Virus record (IMG/VR): IMGVR_UViG_3300028197_001738
Span: 31,664-95,663 of that record
Direction: 5' to 3' (one strand)
DNA: 64,000 nucleotides
Source of the DNA: a virus
Shown: in pieces, positions 36,867-55,710 of the stretch
How positions within the stretch are numbered: position 1 is the stretch's first letter
How the letters are laid out: each line of letters starts with the position of its first letter
Translations under genes and position numbers: made by a program
Notes under the pieces: generated by a model
Database searches by the model: none
Told to the model about the DNA's origin: nothing
The model's input: the letters and a program-made list of their open reading frames with translations, nothing else

Positions 36867-39800
36867 TTAACAGAATGGTGGGCAGGGCACGTCGACTGCT
36901 CCACCTCCACCGGTATCATCTTCGTCACAATTTAAACAATTATCACAAACACCAGCAACTTGATCATAATCAAAACAACAATTACTTTGACAGCAAAAGT
37001 CTGAAGAGGCTACGCAAAAACCATCACTACCACAAACTTCACAGAAGAAACAATCGGTATTAGCAGTACATGCTTCTGTTCCGGGTATCAATTCTCTTCT
37101 TGGTAGAGGAGAAGAAGCTTGGGGATTATCTCCAACTATTAAGCGATCCGTATAAAGCCAGCCACTCACGCTAACCGTGGCATATAATGAACCATCGGTA
37201 TATTCAACAACTTCGTACGGATCAGGTCTCCTGAACATAGAAGAGGAAATACCTGTCCCCACACTACTAGCACTAGGCTCAAAATACGCAGCTTTATGCC
37301 ATTGATTTATACTAGGAATCCAATATTTTCTGTATCTCTTTTTAGCTATAACATAACTATTCTCAGAATTGTCATTAGGCATAACGTCATAAGCGCCAGT
37401 ATCTATGGTTACATCTACATCTGCATCAGCGACTCCCGTAGGAGCTCCATTGTGCAACCAATTGGTGAATCTTACAGCGCTAATAAAGCTTACAAAATTT
37501 ACTGGTTTTTCAGCCATATGTTCTTTAACAGTATAATCAAAATCTACATCGGAAGCCATAAGCGATATCTGCTGAATACCTCCGATTACTTCACTATACA
37601 TTCTTGAATCATATAAATCCCTATCATTTTCTCTAGCTACTGCCTGTAAGAATTCTACATATTGAGAATTAGTAATCTCATATTTACCCATTCGATAAAA
37701 ATTATCAACCACACCTAGTCCATCAAGAGATACTAAAGAATAACTATCGCCGTCTTTAAGATATAAGTTAGTGTTATCTTCAACATTATTAGAATCAATG
37801 ACTGTAACAAAATCTAAATTCAAAGTATTCGCAATAAAAGACTCGTCTTCCATGTTATATGCAGAAGCTATTCTAAAGCCTACTCTGTCGTAAGCTCCAG
37901 ACCTGTCAATAAATTCTATACTTCGTAATCCTGTTGGACTAATAGTACCACTGTTTGGCGTAAACGCAGAACCACCAGCTACTGTCTCTTGATGATCTCT
38001 CATTTCTAATATGTCTTTTTCAACCCATTCAGCTACATTACCATTTTGATCATAGGTTCCATAATAAGAAGACACTCCGTTAGTTCCGACATTTGAAAGT
38101 ATTCCACTAAATGTATGAAGTTTTGTGTCAGGACTACTGGCATTATAACCATAATTAGCAGATGAATATAGATTACTTAATCCTTCTCCGCTAGCATTAA
38201 TAATCATTGGGAAAATACTTGAGTTACAATCTCTTGTGGCAAAAATATTATAATTACCAGATTCGTAAACAACCTGATCGCTGAAAGCTTTAATTTTAAA
38301 TGCTGGGTTTTCTTCTGTCCCATAAACAATAAAATCTATATTCTTTTTTTCTGTATTAAATTCGGTAGTGACATTAGGTCTAATACTTAAAATAATATTA
38401 GAGTTATCTGGAATTGCCCCTTCCGCAATTTTTCGACTTATAGATAAATAACCTCCTTGGCTTGTTGAAAATACATTATACGTTGATTGTACAGTATTTA
38501 CATTTTGGTCTAATAGCATAGAGGTAATAAGACTATTTTCAGAATATATCTCTAAAATAAATCTGTAATCAAGAGACCCATCAGCATTTTCAATAGATAT
38601 TTGATCATTAACACTAAATTCATTAATTGGAATAGGGTCTGCTTCTATAGCAGTTATCTGTCTTTTACAAATAGAAACTTGTCTCTTCTTATGTTTATTC
38701 CATAGTATATCTGCATCTGTTCTAAAATAATCATCTATGCCATAAGAGCCACTTAAAATACCATTTTCTGTGGTTGTAATAAATTGACCAGAAGGAATAT
38801 TAGAAAAACTAAGTGTTTGATTTTGATTCAAAATAACTCCTGTAGACGCGACGACATCATTATTATCGTCGACCACAAGTAAACTACTAGGAGATATATT
38901 GGGAATATTTATATTAGATGATTGAATATTAGTTATATTCGCTGTTCCCTGTATTGTTACAGTAGAAGTTCCACTACCCAATGTTACATTATTAGAAGCT
39001 ATATTGGATGTTGTACTATTAACTATAAAAGAAGATCCTGTATTAAATGTACTAGATGTTGTGTCTACAGAAAGTCCAGTAGAGTCTAAAGTTATATCAT
39101 TACCACTAGATCCTATAGTAGTAGAATTGTCTCTATCAAAAACTAAGCTATTTAAACCACTATAACCTACCGTAATATTGTTTATATCAGCACTTAGTGC
39201 GCTGACATCAGAAAAGCCAGAAGCAAAAACAAGATCTAGATGTCCTAGTTCTGAGCCATAACTATTATTAATTGCAAAAGCTTGTATTTTTACAAAATCT
39301 GTTTTATTACCTACAGAATTTTTAGCAGATAGATTGAGTTGGGATATTTGAGTATTGTTTGATAAAGCGGTAGTTGGTTTATGGTATAGGGTTACATTTG
39401 CTGGATGACATACGCTTCTATTTTCTAATCTAAAACCTTCTTGACATAGAGTATTAACAACATGGAATATGGTCGTTGGTCTGGAGCCTGAAGGTATATT
39501 TAAACCTAATTTACCATCATATGTAAAAAATAAATTTTTAGGATTAGCACCAGTACCAGATCCGTAAACAATAAAGTCTGAAGATTGTCTATCATTATTG
39601 AAAACAACCGAATCTGCTCCGCTAGTAGGTATGATAGTATGAGCCTGCTCACTATTATCTGCTCCAAGTAGTAGATCTCCATTTCCAGAACCTATATAAA
39701 ATTCTCCACCCTGAAAACCGTTTGCTCCATCATTGTATTGGAAGGAATAAGGATTTCCATTAGAGTCACTCATAGAACTAAACTGATTGTCTTCATTAAG

Positions 39801-40421
39801 ATTAAGTTTAGCAATAGAGTCTTCTAGATTAGCTGTATTGACGACATACCATTTGTCTTTATAGATTAATCTAACATAATCTTTATAGTTAGATAATACT
39901 AATATTACATGCCCATTACCTTCTCTTACTGTAACATTATTAGAGCCTTCAATAATTTTTACATCAATTTCTAATCCACTAAGAGGCTCTGGGGGTAATA
40001 CAAGATCTATGTTTTGATGAGTTGTATCTGCTAAATAAGTAGATTTTTGATTGTATGCTGCGATAGATTTATCGAGAAGTATTGTGTTGGAAAATGCAGT
40101 GTCAAAATTACGCTGATTGGCAAATAGATAAAATTCTGTTTTAGGATTATCGGGAAATGTAACAGGATTATTATTACTAGAAGAAGAAACAACATCTTTC
40201 CTACTAACTACAACATTACCATTAGAATCAAATTCTACAACACCGACGCCAGCCTCCCACAAACCACTATCAACTAATCTTGCAATATAAGGAATACTGT
40301 ATCCTATATGAGATTTATCTAAAAAATGGAAAGTAGATATTTTTTTGTCCTGATGAAACTGATTATTTTTTAACTTAAACCTAAAACCTATATTATCAAA
40401 AATTTTCAGTATTGTATTCAT
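36867..40421 (-). CDS. Tail fibre/receptor-binding protein with circularly permuted FGE-sulfatase (CLec-fold) domain and Cys-rich tail
   Basis: WEAGVG...VSR..VVSSS phage fibre N-domain; YDQNGNVAEW...GGS...VGFRIAS precedes FVTV...KYEITNSQY...KPVNFVS...WHKAAY. Confidence 0.8.
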   Translation of the reverse strand: MNTILKIFDNIGFRFKLKNNQFHQDKKISTFHFLDKSHIGYSIPYIARLVDSGLWEAGVGVVEFDSNGNVVVSRKDVVSSSSNNNPVTFPDNPKTEFYLFANQRNFDTAFSNTILLDKSIAAYNQKSTYLADTTHQNIDLVLPPEPLSGLEIDVKIIEGSNNVTVREGNGHVILVLSNYKDYVRLIYKDKWYVVNTANLEDSIAKLNLNEDNQFSSMSDSNGNPYSFQYNDGANGFQGGEFYIGSGNGDLLLGADNSEQAHTIIPTSGADSVVFNNDRQSSDFIVYGSGTGANPKNLFFTYDGKLGLNIPSGSRPTTIFHVVNTLCQEGFRLENRSVCHPANVTLYHKPTTALSNNTQISQLNLSAKNSVGNKTDFVKIQAFAINNSYGSELGHLDLVFASGFSDVSALSADINNITVGYSGLNSLVFDRDNSTTIGSSGNDITLDSTGLSVDTTSSTFNTGSSFIVNSTTSNIASNNVTLGSGTSTVTIQGTANITNIQSSNINIPNISPSSLLVVDDNNDVVASTGVILNQNQTLSFSNIPSGQFITTTENGILSGSYGIDDYFRTDADILWNKHKKRQVSICKRQITAIEADPIPINEFSVNDQISIENADGSLDYRFILEIYSENSLITSMLLDQNVNTVQSTYNVFSTSQGGYLSISRKIAEGAIPDNSNIILSIRPNVTTEFNTEKKNIDFIVYGTEENPAFKIKAFSDQVVYESGNYNIFATRDCNSSIFPMIINASGEGLSNLYSSANYGYNASSPDTKLHTFSGILSNVGTNGVSSYYGTYDQNGNVAEWVEKDILEMRDHQETVAGGSAFTPNSGTISPTGLRSIEFIDRSGAYDRVGFRIASAYNMEDESFIANTLNLDFVTVIDSNNVEDNTNLYLKDGDSYSLVSLDGLGVVDNFYRMGKYEITNSQYVEFLQAVARENDRDLYDSRMYSEVIGGIQQISLMASDVDFDYTVKEHMAEKPVNFVSFISAVRFTNWLHNGAPTGVADADVDVTIDTGAYDVMPNDNSENSYVIAKKRYRKYWIPSINQWHKAAYFEPSASSVGTGISSSMFRRPDPYEVVEYTDGSLYATVSVSGWLYTDRLIVGDNPQASSPLPRRELIPGTEACTANTDCFFCEVCGSDGFCVASSDFCCQSNCCFDYDQVAGVCDNCLNCDEDDTGGGGAVDVPCPPFC

Positions 40422-40436: not shown

Positions 40437-43400
40437 TTACGGGTTAACGTCAAAGTTCATGGTGTCCTGTAGTGATGGGTTATTATCACGGAATGTATTA
40501 AAAGCTCCTTTTATGCCGTCTGTAACTAGTGTCGCTAAATCTGGCTTCAAGCTATTTAATGCTGCATCTCCATTAATAATCACATTCACCTCATGTTTTC
40601 CGGTAATTTTAATCTCTTGTGGAATGTCCAAACTGCTTAATGTAGACGCTATTCGGTCTAATCTCGACACAAATTGATCTATACTGCTAACGGCACTTTC
40701 AATACTACTAGATACACCGCCAGCATCTCCTGTTTGTCTATCTAATCCATTTAATGCGGATTCTATAGCTGAAGTGATCTTACTTGTAAATCGGCCAATA
40801 ACATTATTGATAAATCTGGATGCGTCAAAGGTAGGCTGTGAATTACTTGGTCCTACCTGAGCCCCATTTCTGTAATAATTTGGCAAAGCTAGGCCACCAC
40901 CCTGTAGATATGATGCGATTCCTCCAACAGAATATTCTCCACTATTAATAGCCCTTAAAACACCAAGATGTTTTTGTGTAGATTCTCTATTAACAACAAA
41001 TTCTCCAGGAGTCAACATTGCTGGTACAGTATCTGTTCCCTTTGGCTGGAAATTAATATGAGAACCAGAGCTAGCATATATGGGCCCACCAGAACGTCTA
41101 TATTGTGATTGGTTACTATTTGCTAGTATCTCCGAAAGATCTGCTTGTGCCCCAGCAGTGATCGCTTCAGCAGAAGCTCTTGTCAGTTCTACTAAACTCT
41201 TGGCTAATTGAGCAGAAGCGTGCAAGCCTTCAGCTCTGTTTGATTCTGCTACAATGTTTGGAGATCTTTGTTGCGACTGTAGATTTTTAAGAACAGTTTG
41301 TCCGAGTGAACTTTTATTGAAATTGTTATATTCTATACCTTTAATTGAGTTATAATCATTATTAGCCGTAACTAAAGCATCTCTTTGTATTTTTTGGACT
41401 CTATTAAGATCGATATCGCTTTTAAATCCTTTGGTCCTTTTTCCTAGGTTTGATGAAGCACCTAAGTAAGTGTCGCCAGCTAGATTTTTAAATAAATCAG
41501 AATAAGCATCGTCTCTATCAAACAAACTCTTCAATAAACCATTTTTATCCTCTTGTGTTTTAGGAATAGATGTCATACTAGAATCAACAATAGCACCACC
41601 ATAAGAATCCATTATTTGTCTCAGTGTTTTATCTTTTAATGTGTCTGATAAAAATAGATTATTTGCTAACCACTGAGACAATCCTCCTCCACTAGCTTCT
41701 GCTTTTATCGTTCCTATTTCGTTAAGTGGTGTGTTCATTGGAACACTAGATCCACTTTCAGATAATCTTTTTATATCAAAAGATCTTAATGATACGTTTC
41801 CTTGTTGCACTTCGGCCATTTCATTTTGTAAAGCGTTGCTTTGAGCATACAAAGCCTGTGTATTTCTTTTTAGTACAAGTGATGAAGCAATTAATGCTGA
41901 TATAGGACCTGGTACACCAGCGCTAGTAAGATTATATGTAGTATTAGCCATTTCACCCAAGTCACCAGCCATAGCTCCCAAAATTGAGCTATCAAATACT
42001 TCATTACCCCTTAAGCCACTTGCCTCAGCATTTCCAAGCAATGCTTGCTCTAGAAAATCACCACCAGACACTTTGCCTTCCGCAACTTTTTTCGCCGCTA
42101 AAGCGCCATCAATAAGCAGACGCCCTCTTGCAAGATATTTTTCGTATGCTTTAAATTGAGTTGCGGAGTCGCCTAATCCTTGCATTGATTTTAGACTATA
42201 GAAAAGGCCAGCTATCTCTTTGAGCGAAGAAACTCCATAAGCTGCCGATTTTCCAAAATAATCACTTGAATTATATAAACCTTCCGATGATGAACTAGAA
42301 TTTGCAAATTCGTCTATACCATGTTGTAATTTGTCGACCATGGCAAAAATATTACCAAAGAAAACCAAAGCATTACCAGCACCTTTTATTGGGTATGGTA
42401 TATTTCCTGATCTTTCTCCAACTGATTGTGCTATTTTTTCTGCTCCTCTTAATTGAACAAAATCCAAAGCAGATCTCGTACCTGACTCATAAAAAGAAGA
42501 TGGTATTAAACTGGCAAAATCACCAGTAGCTTTACCAGAATAACCAAGTCCTTTTTCCACATCACCTTCACTAAAAGCTTCAATAGCTTTTACTATGCCT
42601 GTCGCTCCTTTTGTAAATGGCGTAACCATATCTCCACCAGCCAGATAAACCACTCCACCATCTTGATAGCCTTTACTACCACCGCTATTAATTTGTTTAA
42701 GCAAAGGTAGATTGTTTTGTGTTGCTTGTCTGTTTACGACAAACTCCCCAGGAGTTAACATAGCAGGAACAGTATCTGTGCCTCTTGGTTGGAAATTAAT
42801 TAATCTTCCTTCATTAGCATATATCATACCTCCAGTTGCTTTATTAACAGGATTTTCTGCTTCATCTTTAAGGAATTTTTCCAGGCTCTTATCATTAGAT
42901 GATGTATAAAGAGAACCATATCTTCCAGCAGTTAATTTCCTATGAGCGCCTGCAGCAAATTCAGAAGCTATATTTGTTGTCTTAGCTATTTCTTCAGGAC
43001 TGTTTGAGTTATCTAATATATCGTCGGAACTCAGAGATGAATTAATAAGCTTGTCGAAGTTTTCAAAATATTTTTGTATAGAATTTGGATTACCTACAAG
43101 AGCCTCTTTAGTAGAAGCAATAAAATCTGGAGTGTATACTTGCTGGCCATTGTTTATTCTGTTTTCAAAGAAATATGATAACTCATCAAGATATTTACTT
43201 CTTGTTGAAGGACCAGGAAAAATATTAGTAGGAGTTAAAACTCTTTTGAATAAAGTTTGATAATCATTAGGAGCGCTCTTATCTGGAGTTATTTCTGTTC
43301 TACTGCCATCTGCACCAATTTCATAATACCGACCACCTTTAAAATCGTTTGTAACCTCTTTTGTTAAATCGTCAGACAAATCAGCTGATCCACCTAGACG

Positions 43401-46400
43401 TTTAGCTCTTATAATATTAACTTCTTTAGACAATGCGCTATCTATAAAATTATTAAAACCCTGTTCTCCTTCCGCTGTCAATTTATCATAGTATAAAGTT
43501 TTTTCTCTGCCTCTAAGGTTAGGATCAGCAACCTTTACAGCAGAACTCAGATCGGTAGCTTTTTTCATATCTCCTGGAAGGAGACCCAAGGTTTGTGTTG
43601 TGCTAACACCTCGCACACCCCCGACGGTAGTATATAAACGACGTAGAGCTTCTAGTTCGATACCTTTATTATTTTTAGGATCGTCTATTGCTCCTATTTC
43701 TGAATTCAATTTACTTCGCATGCTGTTAATATCTGAAAGACTTTCTGGCATAATCCCAGTTGTTTGATCTTGTTTTTCTATGAATCTAGCCATAGTAACT
43801 CTCAAAGCGTCTGTAAGATCACTATCTAGGTCTTCAGCTACTCCTAATGCAGACCCTCCTGTGCTACCTGTCTTGTCTTTTAGGTATTTTTGTACTGCTT
43901 TTACATAGTCGGTAGATGGTTCATAAGCACCACTTGTTAAACTGTCTTTAATATAAGCAAAATTCTTAGCTTTCTCATTCAGTCCCAACTGAGACAGACT
44001 AGACGGATCAGCTTTATTAATATATCCAGCATCATCAAATGCAATGTCTGTATCGGACCAGGTGTCTGGATCTCCGCTATTTTTAAAAGCACCAAATCCC
44101 ATACTCATTACGCTGCGATAAGCTTTTAAATCGTCTAAATTAGAAAATTCTGCCAAATGTGTATTTGCATACACAGGACTTTTATTATAAAAAGGACCTA
44201 AAGGTGGTTGTTTGTAGGGATCTACCGTATACATTTTATCAGATATGTCTTCAATAAAATCTGATTCTCTTCTGTCATAATATTTACCAGAAACTTCATT
44301 GTATTTTATCGGAACGGTTGTTGCATCTGCACTATCTCCCAATGTTTTTGTTTTTACTTTAATAGCAGATTCCGATGGCGGCGGTAGGGAACTAGCTTCT
44401 GGACCAAAATGCTTAAAGAAAAATGGTAACTCTAGATCAATATCTTCTTCGCTATTGGTAGCCTTATAGAAATCTAGAGAGCTTCCAAAACCCTGTTTTG
44501 ACCAGTCACTATAACGCTCATATGGTTTAGCAATATCTTTATAATATGTGTCAAATATATTTTTAACTTCAGGAGCAGCTTTTTGCCTAGGCGAACTTCC
44601 CTCGGCATACAAACTAATAGGAAAAAATGTATCATTAAGATCATCTACTCCGAATGGTGCAAATTGAAGATTCTTGAAATCTTCTGAACTTATCGTAGCA
44701 TAGTTTCTTGTTCCTTCATATAGTCCTTTAATTTTTTGTTGAATAAGTGTTAATTGTTTACCTTTTTCAGTTAATCCTAAAAAATTGTCATTAGATAAGT
44801 CAGTACTATATCTAGACAACTGATCTTCTGTATTCTCAATATATTTTATAATCAGATCTGTAGGACTTTCAATCCGACCACTATAAGAACCAATAAGACT
44901 CTGATCTTTATAGGCCACCTTTGCAGCATTGCCAAGAAGTTGAGGATTTTCGGCGTTTTTACCAATTCCTAAACCACCATCAGAAGCCCCTAATGTCTTT
45001 ATAGCTCCTTGTTTATCAAAAAGACCCAAATTTTGTGGACCACCGTCTAGACTTTGACCCAAGCCCCCTATGCTTAAAGATAAATTAGAGCTTCCAGTCT
45101 TCGGTGCAGATATGCTATAATCGAATGAAGATCCAAAACTTTTTTGTGCATTTTGTTTAAAGTCTTCTGAACTAGAAATTATACCCTCTGTAATTGATGC
45201 TTTAAGATTAGATAATCTTTCAACATTATCGCCCAATACTTGTTGAGCATGGTCTTTATCTTCTTTATTAATATAGTCTGATGACTCTATAATTTTATTT
45301 GTAGTGGCGTCACTTAAATAATAACTTTTTGCAAACTCTTTCGCCTCAATACCTTCTGTAATATTTGTTGGTTGCGTGTTTTTTGCTCGACCGGTTCGAA
45401 TTCCACCAGATCTATTAATAACTATCTTTAAATTTTCAAATCCTTTACCAGGAGAAAAATTATAATTACTCAAATCTCCATCAAGATTTGGCATTCGAAC
45501 ATTAGCAAAATCACCACTTATTTGTGACGACATTGGTTCATCATTGTTTTCATCCCCCATGGCGTTCTTCATCTGTTTGAAAATTCCTTTTACACCAACA
45601 CTAAGTTCTTTTGCGGGGCCGTAAAAAACGCGATTAACTCGTGCCGTATATAATTGTTTCTCATTAAAATCAGGCAATAAATCTGAGTCGTTGACACTAC
45701 CTCCCGGTAATTGCTTATAAGGATATTGATTATCACTCATGCCTTTATTTTCATCAATACTTTTTCTTACTCCTAAACTTCTTTCTCTTAAGTCAGCAAC
45801 TGGAGGATCGTTCGCATAAAAGCCAGATCCAACGAAACCACCAGATTCATAATAAGAAGTATTGCCATCATTAATAGATTTCAACATACCTAAATTTTTA
45901 GATGTTGCCTGTCTGTTTACTACAAACTCACCAGGAGTAAGCATAGCTGGTACGGTGTCCGTGCCTTTAGGTTTGAAAATCTGTGAGCCACCAGCTGCAT
46001 ATATAATGCCTCCATCTGATTTACCTTGAATACGAATATCTAAAGCACCAGGAAGATCCCGAATTCCTGCACTTATCTCTGTTAATTGTTTAGTAATATA
46101 ATTTTCAACAATGTTTTGGAAGCCATTTAGGAGATCTGTGGTTCCCTTTTGTTCTGAAGCAGACAACTCTTGTTTTATTCCTGCTAGAATCACATTAGCA
46201 TCAGCTTGCTTCTGCACTGCTTCTTTGTAAATACTTATTGTCTCCGCCATTTCGCTGTCTGATTCTGGATCTCTTAATGCGTCTAATATATTTTGCAAAT
46301 TAGAGTCCAGAGGAACATTAGCTTCTTTAAGCATAGATCCCAATACATTAGCCCTAAATTCATTTTGAGTTCTTCCTGTGCCTAAAAGAGGAGCTATACT

Positions 46401-49400
46401 ATTAAATAATTGTAGTCTTTCCGATCTGCTTTGTGCATTAGATCTACCAACCGTATTTCCTGCTAAATTCTCTGACAGCTCACCTAATCTTCTGAATGTT
46501 TTATTAATATCTCCAGCAGAAGAAGTTGATAATTTTTCTAAGAAAGATGTTCCAGCACTAATTCTGCCTTGTATCTCATTAATTCTAGATAAAGCAGACG
46601 AAGCCACTTCTGAATTGCTTGCCAACTCTTGTAATGCTGCATAATTTTGTCTAAGCTGGATAGCTGTTTCTGCTGCTGCTTCCCTAACCTCTCTTAAAGC
46701 TTCAGAAGAGGTTGCTCCATTTTCAGCAAGAGACCTTGCGAAATCTTCTTCTGCTTTTCTTCTTTTTTCTAAATTTAAAATGTTCTGACCTATATTAGCA
46801 GGAGCTGTGCTTCCTGCTCCTCCTCCTACCGATGTAAGATCTGTAATAGTCTGGGTAAATGCATTAATCTTAGATCGAAGAATACCTTCGTTTTTAAATG
46901 CTTCACTTAAACTAATAATTCCCTTGTTTTGTATATTTGCTGCTTTAGATATTAATTGAGTATACTCTACTTGCAATTGTATCTGTCTGTTCATTGATTC
47001 CGTATAAGAATTAACAGTATTTTGCCAAGCCTCTAAAGATTTTACTGCTGACTCTTGAGCTGCTCTTGCTGCATCTACTTGTTTACTCAAGGATGGCAGG
47101 GCTTCTATAAGTTCTTGTGCCGTAATTCTACCGTCTCCTCTAGTAGAAATTTGTTGAATTTGGCTTCTAACTTGTTTAAGAGTTAATTCTTCAACATTTT
47201 GTGGTAATTCAAGATCTCTAATAGATTGTATCGCAGCTTTTTCTATAGCAGCTGTTAGCGCTTTATCACTAGCTCCAGGATTTTCGCTTATGGCTGAGTT
47301 TATAGCCTGATTCATAGAATCTTCTAAATTTGTTATTAAATCTAACAAAGGTCTAATTGCTTGCTGATCCAAACCGAATGAACTAGAGGCCATATCTCTA
47401 GCACCACGAACTTGGTCGTCAGAATAAGCTCTAGGGTTTCTTAAAGTATCAATTGATTCTAAATTAATATTTCCTAATTTAGCCTGCCCAGACAAAGCAG
47501 CAGTAGTTAAATCTAAATTAGTTGCTGATAGTTTAGAAGCAAAATCAAACCTACTAACTATTTGATTTAAACTAGTGTTTAATCGACTTAAACTACTAAC
47601 CATTTGATTAACTTGTTTATTAAGTCTATCAAATTCTATTTGTCTCATAGCCACATTAAATTCTCTTTGAGCTATGGTTGAAGCAGTAATAAATTGTAAA
47701 TTATTTACTCTTGCATTCTTCTCATCGTCAGTTAAATCTATGTTACTCTTTATTTGTTCTATTTCTCGTTGAACAGCAACGTCTGTAGCAGCTAAACTAG
47801 TAGCCAAACTACTAGCAGCGTCTGATGTTCCTAGTAAAGCCTGAAAATCATCAGCAGATTCAAATTCTCCAGACTTAATTAAGGAAGGCAGAGACTGTAA
47901 TAAAGGATTAATAACTTTCGACGCAGCATTAGAGGTTTCTATAGCAATCTGAGGTATTATGTCATTAAACATGAATTCCTGTCTATTCTCATCAGATGCA
48001 CCACGGAAAAGAACTGCATTAGCTGATTGAGCGAAAGCTAATTCTCCTAATCTATTCTTAATAAGATTTAATTCTTCACCTCTTCTATCAGCACCGAATG
48101 CCTGATTTACAAACCTATTCCCAACATTAAGAAATCCTTCTGGTGATTGTCTGTCTAATGATACCTGTCTGTTACTTAATTCTGATGCTTCTTGAACTTC
48201 TCTCACAAAAGCTTCACTGTTATTAATGTTCTTAAGATTTTTTTCAAGTTGACTTAATCTGTTACTGAGGCTGTCTAATGCTGTAGTTAGTCTTCTGTTA
48301 TTGAGAGTCTTAATCCACTCATAGTAAGCATTAGATGTAGCTTTTAAAACCTGAACACCTGCTACTAAAAATTTACCGTATCCAAATAAAGCATCTGTTG
48401 CCTTCAAAACACCTTTAGTAAAACCTTCGGGCAATTTAAATTTATCTGCTATCTTAGGTAGTAACGATTCTAGCTGTGGTCTTGCTGTTCTAGTGTACTG
48501 ATCTGTTGTTTTAGATATAATAGCAACAGAAGTACTTAAAGATCTAACAAATGCACCAACAACTTTACTAGCGCCACCAATATCTCCTAGTAATTGTGAC
48601 ACAACACCACCAGCAATGCCAATACTTAAAGCAAACCTATTGGCTTGTCTTTGAGATTCTGCATCAGCCTTGGTTTTCTTTTGAGTAGCAATAGCAGAGT
48701 CTTTATCTGCTTTTTCTTTAATTTTTTGCCCAGGATTAGCTTGAAATAACACATTGGGTGTTGCCTGTGGTCTACCTTGAGTAATATCAACACTAGCAAG
48801 ATCAGATCTAGTAATAGCTTGTTTAATACCCTGTATTACATCCTTAATATCTGCATCAAATCTACCTCTTACAGACCCTGCTCCAGTTTCTTGGATCAGA
48901 CTACCTCCTTTTGCTATTCCTGATTGTGTAGCTAAATTGCGTGCTACTGCCAAGCTTTCAGATGGAGATTTACCACTTTGTCTCAAACCTTCAAACGCCT
49001 CAGATTTTGTTGACTTTGCTGCTTCAAGCATTTCTGCTTTAACAAATTCTATAGCAGCAGCTAGATCTCCTGCAGATTTACGTGTAGCTTCTGTTATGTC
49101 TTCAACACTTGATGGAGCAGGAGCTACTGGGGAGGACTGTTGAATAGAATCCATATTTACAAAATCGCTCATGTCTCCAGAAAGTCTTCTTGATCTAGAT
49201 TCTGTAACAGCAGGATTAGCAGCTAACTCTGCTGCATTAAACCCTGGGTCTGATTTAATTTGACTTCTCTCTATATCTTCAGCAACTCTTTTACCAGCAT
49301 TAAGCATATTTCTTATTGTATCAACTAATTCTGGAGCACCAGATATGGTCTGAGTCATAGTCTTATTCAAAGTACCCATAATGTTTTGAACAGACCCTGA

Positions 49401-52400
49401 AACTTCTCCTGCTGCAAACTCTGTCTGCTTTAAGAATAACGCAGAAGCTTTTCGTAAGTCGTCTGGCATCTCAAACAGAGCTTTAAGCATAGCATTGGTT
49501 ATTTGTTGAATTTGCTCGGCGGTTACTTCTCCACCAACCTCAAACTTTGCTACGCCTCCTACCATTCCTCCCTTATTGTATCCTTGAATTTTATCAGCTT
49601 TATTTAATTTGTTTAATTTTGCTGCTCCTAGTTTTGAAGCAGCTTTTTTATTTATAACGAACTCACCAGGAGTTAACAGTGCTGGTACTGTGTCTTCGAC
49701 TGACCCACCATTAGCAAACTGCGACATATATTGTGTGGTAGGAGCTTTTGTATATGCATACTGTAATGGTAAAGCTGCTCCTGTCCACGTAGAAGGATCT
49801 TCACTAGGATAGTCTTGTTCTTTAAAATAAGAACCAGTATACATATTCTCTGAAGGCACCAAGGACTTACCAACAGAAGCGCCATCTTGACCTGCTCCTT
49901 TATTAAAATAGTTAGTCCAAATTCTAGTTAAAGAGGCACTACTAACTCTACTTCTGTCAGAAGTTAAACTGCCTCCATTAGCTGTTGCCGTTTCCATAAC
50001 AGCATCATATAAAGATCTCCCTCCTCCACCAGAAACTTGTGCTGATGTGGCTGCATATAATCCATTTCCAATATTATTTGCAACTACATCGCCTGTGCTT
50101 TTTCCTTGAGTGAAATATGCACTAATAGCAGATCCCGCATCTGTAACCCCAATATCTTTTCTAATAGCACTTTCTGCTATAGCAGCTTCACCACCGTCTT
50201 TAAATTTTGTAAAAAAGTCAGATTGTAAACCAGACTCAGCAAAAATCTCCTTTAGTAAAGCTTCAGCTTGTTTGTTCTTACTGCTCTTATAACTTTGAAG
50301 CATCATAGGAACAGCTTCTCCTCTCATTTGAGAAGATAATAATTGTTTTTTGTTTTTGTCATCTTCAAGTGGGTACTCGGACGCAAAAACATCTTCAGCG
50401 GAATAGCCGAGATCTTTGGTATTGTTGATAAAGTCAGAAATTTCAGCTTCTCTATTTATTACAGCGCTATCTAGTTTAGAACTAATATCTGGATAGTTTT
50501 GTAATAAATAAGATTGAACATCATGAAAACCTTCATGAGCAATAATATCGTCTCGATGTTTATCAAAAACCGCCAACCATCTTTTCTGATTAGAACCCGC
50601 ATCGCCAAGAGAGCTTGAAGCTTTTTGTTCTGTGTCTGGATTTAAACCCTGTTGACTTATAAATGCATCTAAATCTTTTGTAAAATCTGGAAAATAAGCA
50701 CCACGACTACCTCCCAGTAGTCTATAAAGTATTCCTCTCCAATTAAAATTAGCATTTTTAGGAGCTTCCCATTCTTGACCATCTTTGGTCATTAGCTTGT
50801 CACCCTGAAACATTTCTGAAGGCAGAACAGCTTTTAATAAGTCATTATAAACTTTGCCTGTATTACCAGAAATGGCTCCTCCAAAAAATTTCTTTTGAGC
50901 TTTCTCTTCAAAATATCTAGTAAACTCACCTCTTGCTCTTTTTAAAGAATCTTTATTAATAATCCTTTTAACTTCTGTTGGCATTCCACTATCAATTCCT
51001 GGAAAATATTGTGAAGCAGCACCTAGTCCATTAGGATAATCTATGGCTCTGTTCTGCTCTGCTCCAGGAGGTAAAGGAGCTCCTAAAAGAGCCATGGTTC
51101 TTTCTATTATGGCTCCTTCTATATTTCCTTGACCTGTTAGCTCTTCTAGCTTTGTGGTGGGTGTTGAGGGCTCTTGATATCTATAAGCAGCTTTTCCAGA
51201 ACCTAAAACAGCTGTAACATTTGACAAGCTGTCATCAATCAGTTTTTCTGCCGCTGACATATTTTGAGCTTTAAGCTCAGGAACATTTGTTGTATTAGGA
51301 GTTTGGGAAACACCTGTTACAGAAGATGTCTCGTAAGGCAGACCGAATCTTTGAAGTGTATCTGCTACTAAATCTGCAGTTAATTGAGGACGAGCAGTTA
51401 AAACCCTTGTATTATTACGAATATAACCAGGAGATTGTTTTTCAAGCTCTAAAAGCTTACTAACTATAGGAGTTGGTCTAGCTCCACGAAGAGCTTCTGC
51501 AACGCGATCTCTATTATAGTATTGAGGAATATCTTCTTTACCTTCAGAATCTAGAATAGCTGTGTTAGAAGCTAAAGTTTCATCAAAATCAAAAGCTATA
51601 GGTCTTACTGGTCCTATTTGATTAGGATCTGAACCCTGAAAAATATTTGCATTCTCTAAATCATTAGCAAAACTAACAGCAGAATCTTTTGTTGCTGCCT
51701 GCATTTTATTAACTGATTCTTTATATCTTTCTCCCAATCCACGAGATTTAATATTTACTTTAGTATTAGCTAAATCATAAACTTTATCTTTATTATATCC
51801 GATAGGTAGTAAGCCAACAATACCAACCTGCTCTTCAAAATCTGTTGCTTGTGATCTCAAAACATTGTCAAGAGTAGTAGTTCTTGCTTGTAAAGCTTGA
51901 TTCATAATCTCTGTAGCTTGATCTAGATTAGAACCAATATTATTAGATCTCAGAACGCTATCTAATGTTCTATCTCCCTTTGATAATCCTAAAATTTGTT
52001 TAACTGACTGTATACCTCCCAAAGAACCTATTTGGTCCTTGATAACATCTTCAACGGACATAGATTTTTGATCAGCTATATCTTGAACCATACCGCCTTC
52101 TAAGAATTTTTGAACCATTCCTCCAGAGTTATAATAACAATCAGCTTTAGGTCTACCTCTTCTTTCAAAAGGTATATCACTAGGAGAAAAATTGCCCCTG
52201 TCTACTGCAACAGCTTTTTCGATGATGCTTCTGCGATTAGGATAAGTATCACTAAGTTTAACATCAGTTAAATCACTAATAGGCTGGTCTGTTAAACCTT
52301 TAATCGTCTGGTTGGCAACAGGTATATCAAATCTGTCTGTTCCAGGATCTTGTAAATCAGCAGCGGCGAAAACGAAACCTTCAAAAAGTTTTCCTGCAGC

Positions 52401-54698
52401 AGTAGCGGTTAAAGCTTTAGCTGTATTAATTGAAGATTCTTGTATTTCTACTCCTCCGATACTATCAGATAAACTAGTAGCCATCTTGTCTATTAATTTT
52501 GGTAATTTCTTTTTTTCTTTATCAAAAGCTTTAGTTTCACTAAAACCAGAAACTTCTATTGGTGCGACATACTGATCACAACCTATCGTTGTTCTAACCA
52601 TGTCGTAATCTGGAGGATTGCCCATGGAAGGTATAAGCATACCATAGGATCTTGAGCTTTCATAAACATCTCCACCATCAGCAAATTTTTGAACAGTTCC
52701 TATTCTAGCAGACTTTCTCGCTCTTCCTCCGCTACCATATTTATTCATATTCTGCAGCTGTTCTGTTCCTATAGTATCAACAGCTTTCTTTCTTATTACG
52801 AACTCGCCAGGCTGCAACATCGCGGGAACCGTATCTCTATTACCTGTTCCTGGTACAGAGCCACCTCTTGCGAATTGTAGTGGTTTTCCATCAGGGCCTA
52901 ATGATCCTGTTGATCCACCAGACCTACCTGTACTAGAAGATCTAACAATATTAGCTAGGGCATCTACAGAAGATGTTAATTTTGTTAAAGCAGAAGTGTT
53001 CGTGGATAAAGCAGATATGTTTTTAATAAGCTCGCTTGAAATATTTTTATTATTGTCTTTTTGACTAGTAGCAGTTGCTAGCTTGGTTGCTGCTTCAGCA
53101 ATTACTTTAGCTGCGGTATTCGTCTGTTGTTCTGGAGTACCAGCACCTCCTTGAACTTTCTTTAAACCTCCGACAAAACCTGTTCCGAATTGTTTGAGTG
53201 CAGACGCCCCTTTTTCTAAACCTATCAAAGCTAATACAGGCAAAGCTCCCTTGACAGCACCAGCTAAACTTAAAATGGTTTTTGTAACACCAAGAGCACC
53301 TTTCGCCAGAGTTTGAAAAGTATCGCTACCAACTATATCACGAGTAAGAGTGGTAAATTGTTCTCTTACTTTAGCAATCTGATTGGCTAATGACTGCTGA
53401 GCTTTTACAGCATCAGTAGCAAGAGATCCCTGACCAGTTTGAGCAACCTTCAATGCTTCTTGAGCTGTGCTAAATCTTTGGATTAAAGGAATAACCTTAC
53501 CAATCTGTCTAAATCCACCGAGCTGCTCTACAATACCTCCGAATTCTATAGACCTAGGATCTAAACCAGACAAACCGCGAGACAAAGCTTCTACTGCATT
53601 AAAAGCACCAACAAATTTGCCTTCAACATCAGTTAATTGAACACCAAAGGCTTCCAAAGCTTCTATGGTGTCTCCTCTTTGTATTCTAGTAAAGATGGTT
53701 CTTAAGCCCGTTGCAATAGTTTCTGCACTTTCACGAGTTGTAGACCTAACACTTGTAAACACAGCTAAGAATTCATTTAATGCGTCTGTACCGGAGCTTA
53801 CGCCTGAACTAGCTGTAGCGAACACACCACCAGCACGTTGTATTGCGGTAATTAAGTCTGTTGATTCAACAGCAAAACTAGCAGCTACAGAATTTATAGA
53901 AGACAGGGCTTTTTCTAAATCTTGCGTACCTATACTAAACTGTCTCATTAAAGCAACACTACCCTCAACGGTCTGATTAAGATTGGTAAACGAAGGCGCT
54001 AGTTCTGTTAATGCCAATGCCTTTAAAGCTGTTTGGGTCTCTTGTGCAGATAACCCAGCCTGAGCTAACGTGTCAGATATGCCAATTAAGCTTGCGGATG
54101 AAACACCTAGACCAGTAGATAGATTGGCTATAGTACCAGATAAAGACTGTAAGCTTTGTTGAGACTTACCAGTAATTTGTTCTATTCTTACCATCTGACG
54201 TTCGAAATCAATAGCAGCACTTACGCCTTGATTAATGGCTCCACTCAATTTAAATATAATACCTGAAACAACACTAAAAGCAGCAAATCTACGAATAGCT
54301 AATGCTCCTTGTCTACCAAACTCTTCCATCTCTGTTTTTGCTTCAGACAAAGCTCCGGAAGAGTCGGAAGCAGATTCAGACACTTGTTGAATTGATGCCG
54401 CTGCTTTTTTAGTATCAGAAGCCAATTTATTGGCTTTGATAGAAGCAACAGAAGATTTTAAGTTAGATAAAGCTTTAGCTGCTGAATTAGCGCTGGTCGT
54501 TGTTTGACTAAGAGTAGTATTAAAAGTTTTTAAAGAAGCGTTCAAAGATGCTACATTTTTTGCTGACCCAGGATCTAGTTTGAATTTTAGATCGCCCGTA
54601 ATGGTTCCTACTTGCTTCTTAATATCAGATACTATAGATCCTATATTTTTAGGACCTCTTAGATTTAATTGTGCTGTTAAATTAAAAGCTTGTGCCAT
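40437..54698 (-). CDS. Tape measure protein (TP901-like N-terminus) carrying multiple enzymatic-looking cassettes
   Basis: 4753 aa; FERQMVRIEQITG...LAQAGLS...TRESAETIATGLRTIFTRI core; follows tube and chaperone genes; five DTVPA(M/L)L(T/Q)PGEFV modules. Confidence 0.92.
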   Translation of the reverse strand: MAQAFNLTAQLNLRGPKNIGSIVSDIKKQVGTITGDLKFKLDPGSAKNVASLNASLKTFNTTLSQTTTSANSAAKALSNLKSSVASIKANKLASDTKKAAASIQQVSESASDSSGALSEAKTEMEEFGRQGALAIRRFAAFSVVSGIIFKLSGAINQGVSAAIDFERQMVRIEQITGKSQQSLQSLSGTIANLSTGLGVSSASLIGISDTLAQAGLSAQETQTALKALALTELAPSFTNLNQTVEGSVALMRQFSIGTQDLEKALSSINSVAASFAVESTDLITAIQRAGGVFATASSGVSSGTDALNEFLAVFTSVRSTTRESAETIATGLRTIFTRIQRGDTIEALEAFGVQLTDVEGKFVGAFNAVEALSRGLSGLDPRSIEFGGIVEQLGGFRQIGKVIPLIQRFSTAQEALKVAQTGQGSLATDAVKAQQSLANQIAKVREQFTTLTRDIVGSDTFQTLAKGALGVTKTILSLAGAVKGALPVLALIGLEKGASALKQFGTGFVGGLKKVQGGAGTPEQQTNTAAKVIAEAATKLATATSQKDNNKNISSELIKNISALSTNTSALTKLTSSVDALANIVRSSSTGRSGGSTGSLGPDGKPLQFARGGSVPGTGNRDTVPAMLQPGEFVIRKKAVDTIGTEQLQNMNKYGSGGRARKSARIGTVQKFADGGDVYESSRSYGMLIPSMGNPPDYDMVRTTIGCDQYVAPIEVSGFSETKAFDKEKKKLPKLIDKMATSLSDSIGGVEIQESSINTAKALTATAAGKLFEGFVFAAADLQDPGTDRFDIPVANQTIKGLTDQPISDLTDVKLSDTYPNRRSIIEKAVAVDRGNFSPSDIPFERRGRPKADCYYNSGGMVQKFLEGGMVQDIADQKSMSVEDVIKDQIGSLGGIQSVKQILGLSKGDRTLDSVLRSNNIGSNLDQATEIMNQALQARTTTLDNVLRSQATDFEEQVGIVGLLPIGYNKDKVYDLANTKVNIKSRGLGERYKESVNKMQAATKDSAVSFANDLENANIFQGSDPNQIGPVRPIAFDFDETLASNTAILDSEGKEDIPQYYNRDRVAEALRGARPTPIVSKLLELEKQSPGYIRNNTRVLTARPQLTADLVADTLQRFGLPYETSSVTGVSQTPNTTNVPELKAQNMSAAEKLIDDSLSNVTAVLGSGKAAYRYQEPSTPTTKLEELTGQGNIEGAIIERTMALLGAPLPPGAEQNRAIDYPNGLGAASQYFPGIDSGMPTEVKRIINKDSLKRARGEFTRYFEEKAQKKFFGGAISGNTGKVYNDLLKAVLPSEMFQGDKLMTKDGQEWEAPKNANFNWRGILYRLLGGSRGAYFPDFTKDLDAFISQQGLNPDTEQKASSSLGDAGSNQKRWLAVFDKHRDDIIAHEGFHDVQSYLLQNYPDISSKLDSAVINREAEISDFINNTKDLGYSAEDVFASEYPLEDDKNKKQLLSSQMRGEAVPMMLQSYKSSKNKQAEALLKEIFAESGLQSDFFTKFKDGGEAAIAESAIRKDIGVTDAGSAISAYFTQGKSTGDVVANNIGNGLYAATSAQVSGGGGRSLYDAVMETATANGGSLTSDRSRVSSASLTRIWTNYFNKGAGQDGASVGKSLVPSENMYTGSYFKEQDYPSEDPSTWTGAALPLQYAYTKAPTTQYMSQFANGGSVEDTVPALLTPGEFVINKKAASKLGAAKLNKLNKADKIQGYNKGGMVGGVAKFEVGGEVTAEQIQQITNAMLKALFEMPDDLRKASALFLKQTEFAAGEVSGSVQNIMGTLNKTMTQTISGAPELVDTIRNMLNAGKRVAEDIERSQIKSDPGFNAAELAANPAVTESRSRRLSGDMSDFVNMDSIQQSSPVAPAPSSVEDITEATRKSAGDLAAAIEFVKAEMLEAAKSTKSEAFEGLRQSGKSPSESLAVARNLATQSGIAKGGSLIQETGAGSVRGRFDADIKDVIQGIKQAITRSDLASVDITQGRPQATPNVLFQANPGQKIKEKADKDSAIATQKKTKADAESQRQANRFALSIGIAGGVVSQLLGDIGGASKVVGAFVRSLSTSVAIISKTTDQYTRTARPQLESLLPKIADKFKLPEGFTKGVLKATDALFGYGKFLVAGVQVLKATSNAYYEWIKTLNNRRLTTALDSLSNRLSQLEKNLKNINNSEAFVREVQEASELSNRQVSLDRQSPEGFLNVGNRFVNQAFGADRRGEELNLIKNRLGELAFAQSANAVLFRGASDENRQEFMFNDIIPQIAIETSNAASKVINPLLQSLPSLIKSGEFESADDFQALLGTSDAASSLATSLAATDVAVQREIEQIKSNIDLTDDEKNARVNNLQFITASTIAQREFNVAMRQIEFDRLNKQVNQMVSSLSRLNTSLNQIVSRFDFASKLSATNLDLTTAALSGQAKLGNINLESIDTLRNPRAYSDDQVRGARDMASSSFGLDQQAIRPLLDLITNLEDSMNQAINSAISENPGASDKALTAAIEKAAIQSIRDLELPQNVEELTLKQVRSQIQQISTRGDGRITAQELIEALPSLSKQVDAARAAQESAVKSLEAWQNTVNSYTESMNRQIQLQVEYTQLISKAANIQNKGIISLSEAFKNEGILRSKINAFTQTITDLTSVGGGAGSTAPANIGQNILNLEKRRKAEEDFARSLAENGATSSEALREVREAAAETAIQLRQNYAALQELASNSEVASSALSRINEIQGRISAGTSFLEKLSTSSAGDINKTFRRLGELSENLAGNTVGRSNAQSRSERLQLFNSIAPLLGTGRTQNEFRANVLGSMLKEANVPLDSNLQNILDALRDPESDSEMAETISIYKEAVQKQADANVILAGIKQELSASEQKGTTDLLNGFQNIVENYITKQLTEISAGIRDLPGALDIRIQGKSDGGIIYAAGGSQIFKPKGTDTVPAMLTPGEFVVNRQATSKNLGMLKSINDGNTSYYESGGFVGSGFYANDPPVADLRERSLGVRKSIDENKGMSDNQYPYKQLPGGSVNDSDLLPDFNEKQLYTARVNRVFYGPAKELSVGVKGIFKQMKNAMGDENNDEPMSSQISGDFANVRMPNLDGDLSNYNFSPGKGFENLKIVINRSGGIRTGRAKNTQPTNITEGIEAKEFAKSYYLSDATTNKIIESSDYINKEDKDHAQQVLGDNVERLSNLKASITEGIISSSEDFKQNAQKSFGSSFDYSISAPKTGSSNLSLSIGGLGQSLDGGPQNLGLFDKQGAIKTLGASDGGLGIGKNAENPQLLGNAAKVAYKDQSLIGSYSGRIESPTDLIIKYIENTEDQLSRYSTDLSNDNFLGLTEKGKQLTLIQQKIKGLYEGTRNYATISSEDFKNLQFAPFGVDDLNDTFFPISLYAEGSSPRQKAAPEVKNIFDTYYKDIAKPYERYSDWSKQGFGSSLDFYKATNSEEDIDLELPFFFKHFGPEASSLPPPSESAIKVKTKTLGDSADATTVPIKYNEVSGKYYDRRESDFIEDISDKMYTVDPYKQPPLGPFYNKSPVYANTHLAEFSNLDDLKAYRSVMSMGFGAFKNSGDPDTWSDTDIAFDDAGYINKADPSSLSQLGLNEKAKNFAYIKDSLTSGAYEPSTDYVKAVQKYLKDKTGSTGGSALGVAEDLDSDLTDALRVTMARFIEKQDQTTGIMPESLSDINSMRSKLNSEIGAIDDPKNNKGIELEALRRLYTTVGGVRGVSTTQTLGLLPGDMKKATDLSSAVKVADPNLRGREKTLYYDKLTAEGEQGFNNFIDSALSKEVNIIRAKRLGGSADLSDDLTKEVTNDFKGGRYYEIGADGSRTEITPDKSAPNDYQTLFKRVLTPTNIFPGPSTRSKYLDELSYFFENRINNGQQVYTPDFIASTKEALVGNPNSIQKYFENFDKLINSSLSSDDILDNSNSPEEIAKTTNIASEFAAGAHRKLTAGRYGSLYTSSNDKSLEKFLKDEAENPVNKATGGMIYANEGRLINFQPRGTDTVPAMLTPGEFVVNRQATQNNLPLLKQINSGGSKGYQDGGVVYLAGGDMVTPFTKGATGIVKAIEAFSEGDVEKGLGYSGKATGDFASLIPSSFYESGTRSALDFVQLRGAEKIAQSVGERSGNIPYPIKGAGNALVFFGNIFAMVDKLQHGIDEFANSSSSSEGLYNSSDYFGKSAAYGVSSLKEIAGLFYSLKSMQGLGDSATQFKAYEKYLARGRLLIDGALAAKKVAEGKVSGGDFLEQALLGNAEASGLRGNEVFDSSILGAMAGDLGEMANTTYNLTSAGVPGPISALIASSLVLKRNTQALYAQSNALQNEMAEVQQGNVSLRSFDIKRLSESGSSVPMNTPLNEIGTIKAEASGGGLSQWLANNLFLSDTLKDKTLRQIMDSYGGAIVDSSMTSIPKTQEDKNGLLKSLFDRDDAYSDLFKNLAGDTYLGASSNLGKRTKGFKSDIDLNRVQKIQRDALVTANNDYNSIKGIEYNNFNKSSLGQTVLKNLQSQQRSPNIVAESNRAEGLHASAQLAKSLVELTRASAEAITAGAQADLSEILANSNQSQYRRSGGPIYASSGSHINFQPKGTDTVPAMLTPGEFVVNRESTQKHLGVLRAINSGEYSVGGIASYLQGGGLALPNYYRNGAQVGPSNSQPTFDASRFINNVIGRFTSKITSAIESALNGLDRQTGDAGGVSSSIESAVSSIDQFVSRLDRIASTLSSLDIPQEIKITGKHEVNVIINGDAALNSLKPDLATLVTDGIKGAFNTFRDNNPSLQDTMNFDVNP
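40995..52835 (-). repeat. Five dispersed DTVPAMLTPGEFV modules in the TMP
   Basis: Copies at about 52800-52835, 49656-49694, 45921-45959, 42738-42776 and 40995-41033 (aa about 622, 1669, 2914, 3975, 4556). Confidence 0.95.
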
Positions 54699-54789: not shown

Positions 54790-55710
54790 TCAAGCAGTTT
54801 TTTCAGTATCCTTTGACTTTTTAGATTTGGTCTTTGCAGACGAAGCCCTAGGGCTTTCAGGCTCTTCTGATTTGGCTGATGTTGTGTCTGCAATTTCTTC
54901 ATCTTTTACTTCTTCGTCTACTATTACTGGTTGTCCACTATCGTCTAAAAACGGCTCTTGTTCGACAATAAAATCACCTTGGCTATCAACTAAGTTTCCA
55001 AACTTATCAACAAACTCGCCACTGTCATTGATAAATCTTCCGTTTTCGTCAACCAGTCTTCCTTCTGCGTCGATAAATCTTCCTTTTTTATCAACTAACC
55101 TTAAATTATCATCTACAAATTTATATTTCTTTAAGAATTTATTTTCAGGTAAATTCTTCTCATAATCGTTATCCAAACCGTACATCATGTTAGCCAAAAT
55201 TTGAGCACCCTTAAGTGATACCTCTTCGGTAGCTCTGTTTAGGTAGTCTTCCATATCTTTAAAATATGGTTGTTTCGTATCGTTATACACCACACAGGCA
55301 CTTACTAAATAATTAAATCTATTGTTATCAGCTTGGCCTTCGGCACTATGATTATCTAGACTAGTTCTCACACTAATCAAATCTCTAATGTCGTCTCTAA
55401 TGACCTTCATTCTAACAGCTAGGTCTTTAGCTTCGTTTAGGCCAAAACCACCTTTAGCAAGACGTTTTTCGCCATCTGAAAGCTCTTTCTGTAATCCTGT
55501 AAATTTAGCCTGTTTCTCATTGTCCCACAGTCCCTGATCTGATAATAGGTCATCTAGCTTTGCTCTTACAACACTTTTGCTTTTAATAGCATCCGTAAAA
55601 GCTTGATTATAAACCTTTTGTGCTTCTCTGTTATCTTGCAGAGTAGGGCTCTTAACAAGAAACTCAACTTCTTTATCTTCTATAGTTACTGTAAAAGTTT
55701 TAGTCTTCAT
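54790..55710 (-). CDS. Putative tail assembly chaperone with C-terminal 7-aa hairpin repeats
   Basis: Directly upstream of the TMP; (L/F)(V/I)(D/N)xxG repeats; charged disordered tail. Confidence 0.6.
   Translation of the reverse strand: MKTKTFTVTIEDKEVEFLVKSPTLQDNREAQKVYNQAFTDAIKSKSVVRAKLDDLLSDQGLWDNEKQAKFTGLQKELSDGEKRLAKGGFGLNEAKDLAVRMKVIRDDIRDLISVRTSLDNHSAEGQADNNRFNYLVSACVVYNDTKQPYFKDMEDYLNRATEEVSLKGAQILANMMYGLDNDYEKNLPENKFLKKYKFVDDNLRLVDKKGRFIDAEGRLVDENGRFINDSGEFVDKFGNLVDSQGDFIVEQEPFLDDSGQPVIVDEEVKDEEIADTTSAKSEEPESPRASSAKTKSKKSKDTEKTA

Follow-up and report, generated by a model that had tools for sequence, protein, structure and literature searches.

The window analysed here, 64,000 nucleotides of IMG/VR record IMGVR_UViG_3300028197_001738 (positions 31,664 to 95,663 of 95,663 bp), contains a single uninterrupted open reading frame (ORF) of 4,753 codons plus stop at 40437..54698 on the minus strand, and the ORF call and its homologues identify the product as a genuine giant tape measure protein (TMP) of the TP901 family. 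We consider it likely that this protein combines a fixed TMP scaffold with five copies of a junction module and a set of exchangeable globular cassettes, and that enzymes are delivered in this way ahead of the DNA. PF10145 (PhageMin_Tail), the only Pfam family matched in the ORF, aligns to residues 190-381 with 72.6 bits against a cut-off of 33.2; the PHROG TMP families 28, 4211 and 1533 match over the first ~600 residues, and the protein has five separate matches to phrog_35029 and four to phrog_25241. The gene is one of a run of large structural genes, all in the same direction, that extends from ~63.8 kb down to 8.6 kb, and the co-directional ORFs downstream of it carry fn3/minor-tail (phrog_6977) and FGE-sulfatase domains. 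TMPs determine the length of the tail and occupy its lumen; to our knowledge, they are generally described as rulers and as formers of channels, bearing no more than a single motif of a cell-wall enzyme.

The junction module and the giant TMP family

The first-pass annotation of this DNA described a chain punctuated by [FYK]xxGG motifs and listed sixteen of them. All sixteen are found at the residues given, together with five more (KVQGG 514, YGSGG 654, KSDGG 2893, KRLGG 3766 and KVSGG 4209). The total of 21 compares with 4.6 +/- 2.2 expected (2,000 shuffles, maximum 13), and the 54 GG pairs of the protein with 35.5 +/- 5.4 in the shuffles. Fourteen of the 21 motifs belong to five copies of one module of ~75 residues (core DTVPAMLTPGEFV), so the excess is not made of independent sites, and the seven outside the modules are about the number that chance would give. 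The motifs at 856/865, 1270, 1499 and 3766, all outside the modules, fall at points where homology breaks off, and homologues conserve them as (K/R)[FY]AxGG. What had been taken for bare cleavage motifs are instead mostly the edges of a structured, conserved module, and judging from the sequences [FY]AxGG motifs form both these edges and the single joints between adjacent inserts.

The module begins with [FY]AxGG, followed after 3-12 residues by D-T-V-P-A-x-L-x-P-G-E-F-V, a helical stretch ending L..xN, and [FY]xxGG(xV), often with another FAxGG behind it. Across the 35 copies aligned, invariance extends to V, L, P, G, E and V of the core, to the L and N that follow and to the later GG; conservation of the core is thus no weaker than that of the glycines. 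The copies lie, like every feature of the protein described here, on the minus strand: R1 at residues 600-686 (52641..52901; FARGG...DTVPAMLQPGEFV...YGSGG...FADGG), R2 at 1647-1732 (49503..49760), R3 at 2892-2965 (45804..46025), R4 at 3952-4032 (42603..42845) and R5 at 4533-4613 (40860..41102). At the DNA level they are 72-79% identical over 63-109 nt and lack long exact repeats, and we therefore regard them as old duplicates held by selection at the protein level. Two short database entries, P0171 (350 residues) and P0173 (288 residues), are fragments of giant TMPs with the order nuclease-motif block, FAxGG, cassette D (see below) and a variant module with TVPALVSNGEAYVP; by its sequence, the variant appears to be a second type of the module.

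The hidden Markov model (HMM) built from the 35 copies aligns to residues 729-796 of lambda gpH (29.9 bits, E = 4e-11: FHFATGGFTGTGGKYEPAGIVHRGEFVFTKEATSRIGVGNLYRLMRGYATGGYVG), and on this sequence match we take the module to be homologous to that stretch (FATGG...RGEFVF...YATGG). The position of R5 matches that of the single module of gpH; in both proteins, the last copy is followed by a conserved C-terminal tail (here residues 4614-4753, 40440..40859, aligned in 50-90 of 120 homologues), presumed by likeness to lambda, Douge and T5 to be the hub-binding end (PMC12617516, PMC13033339). Unlike our TMP, gpH has 853 residues, one module and no enzyme domain, whereas ours has five modules and about 2,000-2,500 residues of non-ruler inserts. 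Searches with tblastn locate the module in cyanomyophage proteins as well as in the TMPs of phages of Gordonia, Clavibacter and Rhodococcus. A profile containing it matches two places in the 1,699-residue gp16 (PDB 8zdo_S, E = 5e-6), the TMP of mycobacteriophage Douge, of which residues 1658-1699 alone have been modelled (PMC13033339).

A word-indexed search with residues 600-1730 of our TMP returned 272 proteins of 2,614-8,318 residues (E <= 1e-3); PF10145 is carried by nearly all of the 120 matches listed out of these 272. In all, >270 metagenomic TMPs of giant size (2.7-7.5 kaa) have the same architecture as ours. An exhaustive phmmer search with residues 680-1660 against 1.84 billion representatives gave 101 matches, almost all of them giant TMPs. 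Every one of the 121 homologues that were fetched carries 2-9 copies of the module, the first just after the core (at about residue 570-690) and, in full-length homologues, the last ~150-230 residues from the C-terminus. Coverage along our protein, counted out of 120 homologues, is uneven: the core, the modules, residues ~2350-2900 and the C-terminal ~150 residues are widely covered, residues 870-1270 are common and 1500-1650 intermediate, residues 690-850 and 1290-1480 have low coverage (14-21/120) and 3000-3750 lower coverage still (1-7/120), and residues 4100-4450 have no counterpart in the 120.

The places at which homology starts and stops are not random. Of the internal ends of BLAST high-scoring segment pairs (n = 1,915), 48% fall within 15 residues of a motif against 11% expected, which bears out the earlier suggestion that the motifs sit at cassette edges. 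The peaks are sharp at 850-865, 1260-1275 and 1490-1500, the isolated joints, and at the module edges, and tblastn matches in 65 IMG/VR loci begin and end at the same places. Across 163 giant homologues, there are 12.4 [FY]xxGG motifs per protein (2.06 expected) in the context GG-x-[VI]-Q-[KR]-[FY]-A-x-G-G-x-V, often doubled; when the proteins are split at the motifs, the 1,843 segments fall into 622 clusters (at least 60% reciprocal coverage), 440 of them singletons. In different homologues, cassette D is preceded by a joint of the form PKFADGG, RFAVGG, TRYAVGG, QKFAEGG or MGYASGG. A direct replacement is seen in one of them (P0007), where an ADP-ribosyltransferase (ART; PF03496, residues 1303-1513) lies between KFFNGG (FFNGG 1294) and EQFADGG (FADGG 1515), after a B-type cassette, and so occupies the slot that cassette C fills in our protein between KFFGG 1270 and FKDGG 1499. 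Precomputed Pfam annotation also places SNase and SHD1 domains in other members of the family. The breakpoints, the segment clusters and the replacement in P0007 together uphold the view of the first-pass annotation that the protein is modular, its cassettes varying while the GG joints stay fixed. We found no published description of this giant TMP family or of the reiterated module in the literature searched; TMPs with a single embedded enzyme motif, polyvalent proteins, and the processing of gpH and pb2 are already known.

The cassettes and their predicted folds

Cassette B (residues 870-1274, 50877..52091, with KFFGG at its end) is a conserved alpha/beta domain, modelled by AlphaFold2 (AF2) with a predicted local distance difference test score (pLDDT) of ~90, into which a HAD domain is nested at residues ~1029-1176 (51171..51614). 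The Rossmannoid HAD fold of the insert is supported by Foldseek and VIA matches, and its motifs are D1037xD1039xT1041, T1101, K1143 and D1155-D1156. D1037, D1039, T1041 and K1143 are present in 28/28 alignment rows, as is T or S at 1101, while D1155 is present in 30/36 and D1156 in 32/36. Fold matches and motif conservation thus agree with the HAD-like assignment made at first reading, and we take the modelled domain to be a genuine Pnkp-type HAD phosphatase. It differs from the 3'-phosphatase domain of T4 polynucleotide kinase/phosphatase (Pnkp), to which it is 16-18% identical, in having no attached kinase domain and in being inserted in another domain inside a TMP.

The outer domain of B was harder to place, its fold searches returning lists filled by HAD matches. 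Its C-terminal block is widespread without the HAD insert and has invariant G, E, D, G, F, T and R residues; a profile and sequence search of the PDB gave no relative for it. A PD-(D/E)xK nuclease, considered here, is not supported. In the alignment of the block, E50 and D71 are invariant, and the position of the ExK Lys holds either K or T, depending on the member (PTEVKR, PTDATR, PTDVTR), which argues against a standard site. A pairwise likeness between cassette A (residues 687-855, 52134..52640) and the flanks of B was rejected (Smith-Waterman z ~0). Cassette A is rare among homologues, and its model has a pLDDT <50 and is without a usable alignment. The nuclease-like cassettes of the first-pass annotation are therefore not sustained, given that the ExK Lys is not invariant and that A lacks similarity to the B flanks. 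Cassettes A and B are separated by a GG doublet joint at residues 856-869 (YNSGGMVQKFLEGG; 52092..52133), recognised from its motifs and from the breakpoints.

Cassette C (residues 1275-1503, 50190..50876, with FKDGG at its end) contains an invariant AHExxHDxQ and a downstream Glu. Ten aligned sequences (~25% identity) share A122, H123, E124, H127, D128, Q130 and E196 without exception, which agrees with the pattern of zincin-like metallopeptidases (polyvalent-protein MPTase / M34-like), where one helix bears HExxH and a later helix supplies a Glu ligand. VIA ranks lethal factor, Certhrax and PPEP highest, a weak match to the zincin fold; Foldseek with the cassette model found nothing in the PDB or BFVD, and the PDB profile and sequence search gave no relative. 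The HExxH cassette proposed earlier is thus confirmed as regards its HExxH...E site, the fold standing as a weak lethal-factor/PPEP-like match, and we describe C as a zincin-like domain on this footing. It is present in a minority of family members. Free-standing homologues of C also occur (P0185, P0186, P0188, P0190 and P0198; metagenomic, 150-357 residues), ending at ...LPR[FLV]xx where the TMP versions run on with GG.

Cassette D (residues 1504-1646, 49761..50189) belongs to a conserved phage family with the pattern GYGPxLYD..ME...G..L.SDR..VS..A..VW..Y, which also occurs as phage proteins of ~210 residues. It has no Pfam match and no PDB profile match, and the ESM Atlas holds nothing for the cassette itself. 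The Atlas neighbours are clusters of phage 'hypothetical' proteins, one of which (rank 30) has Acetyltransf_1 in 15% of its members. The resemblance of D to acetyl-CoA motif A is by eye only. The GNAT-like cassette that had been claimed comes down to this one weak lead, and we treat a GNAT-like fold for D as a lead only.

Segments F (residues 2966-3951, 42846..45803) and G (residues 4033-4532, 41103..42602) have a globular-type composition, belong to no known family and have no relatives in the PDB or among GenBank phages. The last ~190 residues of F, after KRLGG 3766, are a cassette common to ~30 homologues; G is aligned by 0-9 of 120 homologues and at its ends only. When GenBank phages were searched with blastn and tblastn, the module alone matched and nothing was found for the cassettes, and a single-protein scan of viral contigs likewise gave nothing.

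Probable enzyme delivery and the possible role of the joints

We suggest that the scaffold would comprise the N-terminal TP901-type core (residues 1-600, 52899..54698, with PF10145 at 190-381; aligned in ~110/120 homologues) with its membrane-type hydrophobic segments at residues 131-156 and 475-493, a long helical ruler segment and the conserved C-terminal end. The ruler would be segment E (residues 1733-2891, 46026..49502), which has a ruler-like composition, rich in Ala, Ser, Leu and Gln and poor in Pro, with one hydrophobic segment (residues 2022-2040) and a C-terminal half common to ~88/120 homologues. Between the joints would lie the exchangeable globular cassettes, namely the Pnkp-type HAD in its conserved domain, the zincin-like domain, perhaps a GNAT-like one, and three more (A, F and G). 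The TMP would be synthesised as a single chain and enter the tail lumen in that form, its cassettes unfolded or compacted; for the TMP-like effectors of contractile injection systems, such storage and refolding after ejection have been proposed (PMC13277306). At infection, the TMP would leave the tail first, and because the chain is expelled first, ready-made enzymes would reach the host envelope or cytoplasm before the DNA. We therefore suggest, from the sequence, that the tail probably delivers ready-made enzymes. What they would do is speculation: the Pnkp-like phosphatase might serve in end-healing or nucleotide-directed counter-defence, and the ART domains of relatives in host takeover, by analogy with T4 Alt.

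Several points count against this account. We infer the delivery and the folding state of the cassettes from sequence, and cleavage is a candidate process. Folded cassettes of 150-400 residues in three copies would be too large for a lumen of ~4 nm, and unfolded storage is therefore an assumption. Cassettes A, D, F and G and the flanks of B are without an assigned fold, the AF2 model of the module alone is of low confidence (pLDDT 51-71), the homologue sample was drawn with words from residues 600-1730, which inflates the prevalence of cassette B, and the record is only ~66% complete by CheckV. The co-prediction of three module copies as a complex (score 0.01) counts neither for nor against a trimer.

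An enzymatic part that sits inside the TMP and acts at infection is known from other phages. T5 pb2 has a metallopeptidase domain that is separated from the ruler by a cut (pb2C) (bioRxiv 10.1101/2022.09.20.507954), and the TMP of mycobacteriophage TM4 has a peptidoglycan hydrolase motif (PMC1796659). Those proteins carry one cell-wall-directed motif, whereas ours would carry several swappable cassettes, including cytoplasm-type ones (the Pnkp-like phosphatase; ART in relatives). The comparison with polyvalent proteins drawn in the first-pass annotation is apt (PMC5512222): like our protein, with its phosphatase and zincin (and ART and SNase in its relatives), they are giant phage polypeptides in which effector-type domains unrelated to one another are brought together. 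In both cases the proposal is that they are delivered along with the DNA, and the hub domain of polyvalent proteins is a zincin-like metallopeptidase of the lethal-factor type, with HExxH and a Glu from the helix that follows. The polyvalent examples are head-packaged or transferred by conjugation, whereas ours would be carried by a tail-lumen TMP with its domains separated by a reiterated gpH-type module; the polyvalent-protein paper mentions tape measure proteins 0 times (PMC5512222). The 5,002-residue gp96 of the cultured Thermus siphophage P23-45 resembles our protein in being a giant TMP annotated with a metallopeptidase domain. The HMM finds no junction module in it, and there are eight loose [FYWLMK]xxGG motifs, two of them with F or Y. 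Most of its length is probably ruler, in keeping with the ~1-um tail of the relative P74-26 (PMC10034513).

The junction modules would, in our account, act as protein-level functional joints, and what happens at them is most directly addressed by lambda. There, gpH loses a ~14-kDa C-terminal piece by a cut in the glycine-rich region just before its module, and the piece (gpHC, ~690-853) remains in the particle, where residues 818-849 alone are resolved, bound to gpI (PMC12617516). A 14-kDa fragment would begin at about residue 715-722, 10-20 residues ahead of FATGG 733-737, and the module would then be the conserved, structurally unresolved head of gpHC. By analogy, our modules are candidate sites of the same processing. 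No cleavage rule can be carried over from lambda to our TMP, and we entertain only tentatively that the chain is cut at some of the junction modules. Cleavage by a host protease or by autocatalysis is possible. In T5 (L069) pb2, residues 1118-1160, the cut would fall at ...NSFVPR|AEGGMMYPGVSYQMGEHGTEVV if pb2C is the last 92 residues (PMC12617516). A GG would then follow the cut after two residues, with a GE...EVV stretch further on, and by sequence the region looks like a degenerate junction module, although the module HMM has no match in pb2. A 1973 study of T5 reportedly, to go by its title, implicates a host protease.

The alternative we take most seriously, while leaning somewhat away from it, is that the joints are purely structural. 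They would be hinges or docking and register points (for the tail-assembly chaperone, the tube lumen or the hub), and the TMP would stay intact, its cassettes acting in cis on the ejected, membrane-inserted chain. In keeping with this, the module-bearing TMP is one unbroken ORF in 65/65 related loci, the module occurs in ordinary TMPs (lambda, Douge and the other phages listed above), and what is invariant is the module core and not the glycines only. Nor was a dedicated protease found. The contig contains no Ulp1 (C48; PF02902), adenain (C5; PF00770), C39 (PF03412), Prok-JAB (PF14464), JAB (PF01398) or NlpC/P60 (PF00877) peptidase, and four 100%-complete relatives of 192-229 kb contain no PF02902 or PF14464. 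However, the only carrier of the module that has been studied well, lambda gpH, undergoes its cut nearby, and any docking partner is hypothetical. Neither the lambda map nor the Douge map resolves the module (PMC12617516, PMC13033339).

That the modules are real processing sites (for a host protease, the embedded zincin or autocatalysis), freeing separate enzymes into the cell ahead of the genome, with the same module marking the cut site in lambda gpH, seems to us rather doubtful. A true polyprotein, in which a GG-directed protease cuts after every [FY]xxGG to free separate effectors in the virion or the infected cell, is in our judgement unlikely, and that every GG joint is cut to release individual enzymes is, if anything, a poorer prospect. 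The polyprotein reading does account for several observations: the joints keep an invariant GG although the family is deeply divergent, the standalone cassette C homologues of ~300 residues stop at LPRF.., where the TMPs go on with ..GG, lambda gpH is cut beside its module and the cut in T5 pb2 frees an enzyme domain (PMC12617516; bioRxiv 10.1101/2022.09.20.507954), and an in-cis zincin is present, of the kind proposed to process polyvalent proteins (PMC5512222). Yet the zincin is confined to a minority of the family, and the Ulp1/adenain-like protease that the first-pass annotation proposed to look for was not found in the ~66%-complete contig, with no Ulp1 in the four complete relatives either. 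The sites themselves also fit poorly. Adenain, Ulp and PLpro sites have a hydrophobic residue at P4 (LxGG, (M/I/L)xGG), whereas the family consensus [KR][FY]AxGG has its aromatic residue at P5, which speaks against an adenain/Ulp-type site. Most of the motifs lie inside the 75-residue module, where the most invariant residues are D.VPA.L.PGEFV and not the glycines alone; the lambda fragment would start before FATGG; and a gene naturally split at a joint was seen in 0/65 loci. We think it very improbable that the motifs are mere scars of cassette exchange, with the module mainly a DNA-level recombination joint and the FAxGG units remnant module halves without a biochemical role: cassettes are indeed gained, lost and replaced at exactly these joints, and the single joints KFFGGAISG and FKDGGEAA resemble the first strand of the module (FARGGSVPG, FANGGSVED), but the module copies have diverged at the DNA level without long exact repeats, and their amino acid conservation among proteins ~25-40% identical, reaching as far as lambda, indicates selection on the protein.

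If our preferred reading of a fixed scaffold with exchangeable, delivered cassettes is right, a large family without a published description that we could find, with >270 members in our searches, uses the TMP as a carrier of swappable cytoplasm-type enzymes, and the 'polyvalent protein' idea extends to the tail lumen. The family would then be a natural source of candidate enzymes that act early against the host or its defences, and the element FAxGG...D.VPA.L.PGEFV...YxxGG could be mutated to ask at which site and by what means lambda gpH is cleaved. This reading would also raise the physical question of how a tail tube can store and expel ~2,000 residues of globular domains present in three or six copies. 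Should the modules prove to be real processing sites, the siphophage tail lumen would be a programmable effector-delivery device (for the Pnkp-like phosphatase and the zincin; ART or SNase in relatives).

Genomic setting

The complete relatives with family TMPs (G001-G004, the records of L001, L029, L038 and L046) are 192-229 kb long, two of them with direct terminal repeats. From these sizes, the family belongs to near-jumbo siphophage-like genomes, and the present record of 96 kb is probably about two thirds of a genome.

Directly after the TMP gene, an ORF of 1,184 residues (window 36867-40421, minus strand) has an FGE-sulfatase-like domain at residues 907-1047 (E = 1.8e-8), and the next ORF (34392-36851, minus strand; 819 residues) has fn3 domains and a minor-tail PHROG match. 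Just upstream of the TMP gene are six ORFs (54790-60483, minus strand) of 306, 104, 349, 367, 429 and 218 residues, a stretch where tail chaperones, tube and head-tail proteins are expected. None of the six matches any PHROG or Pfam family, and those of 104 and 306 residues overlap by 11 nt. The structural block contains two more giant ORFs on the minus strand, of 2,524 residues (8607-16181) and 2,169 residues (16199-22708), which presumably encode fibres. Between these and the TMP gene, the GC content rises to 0.455 at 24-26 kb, inside the ORF at 24672-27740.

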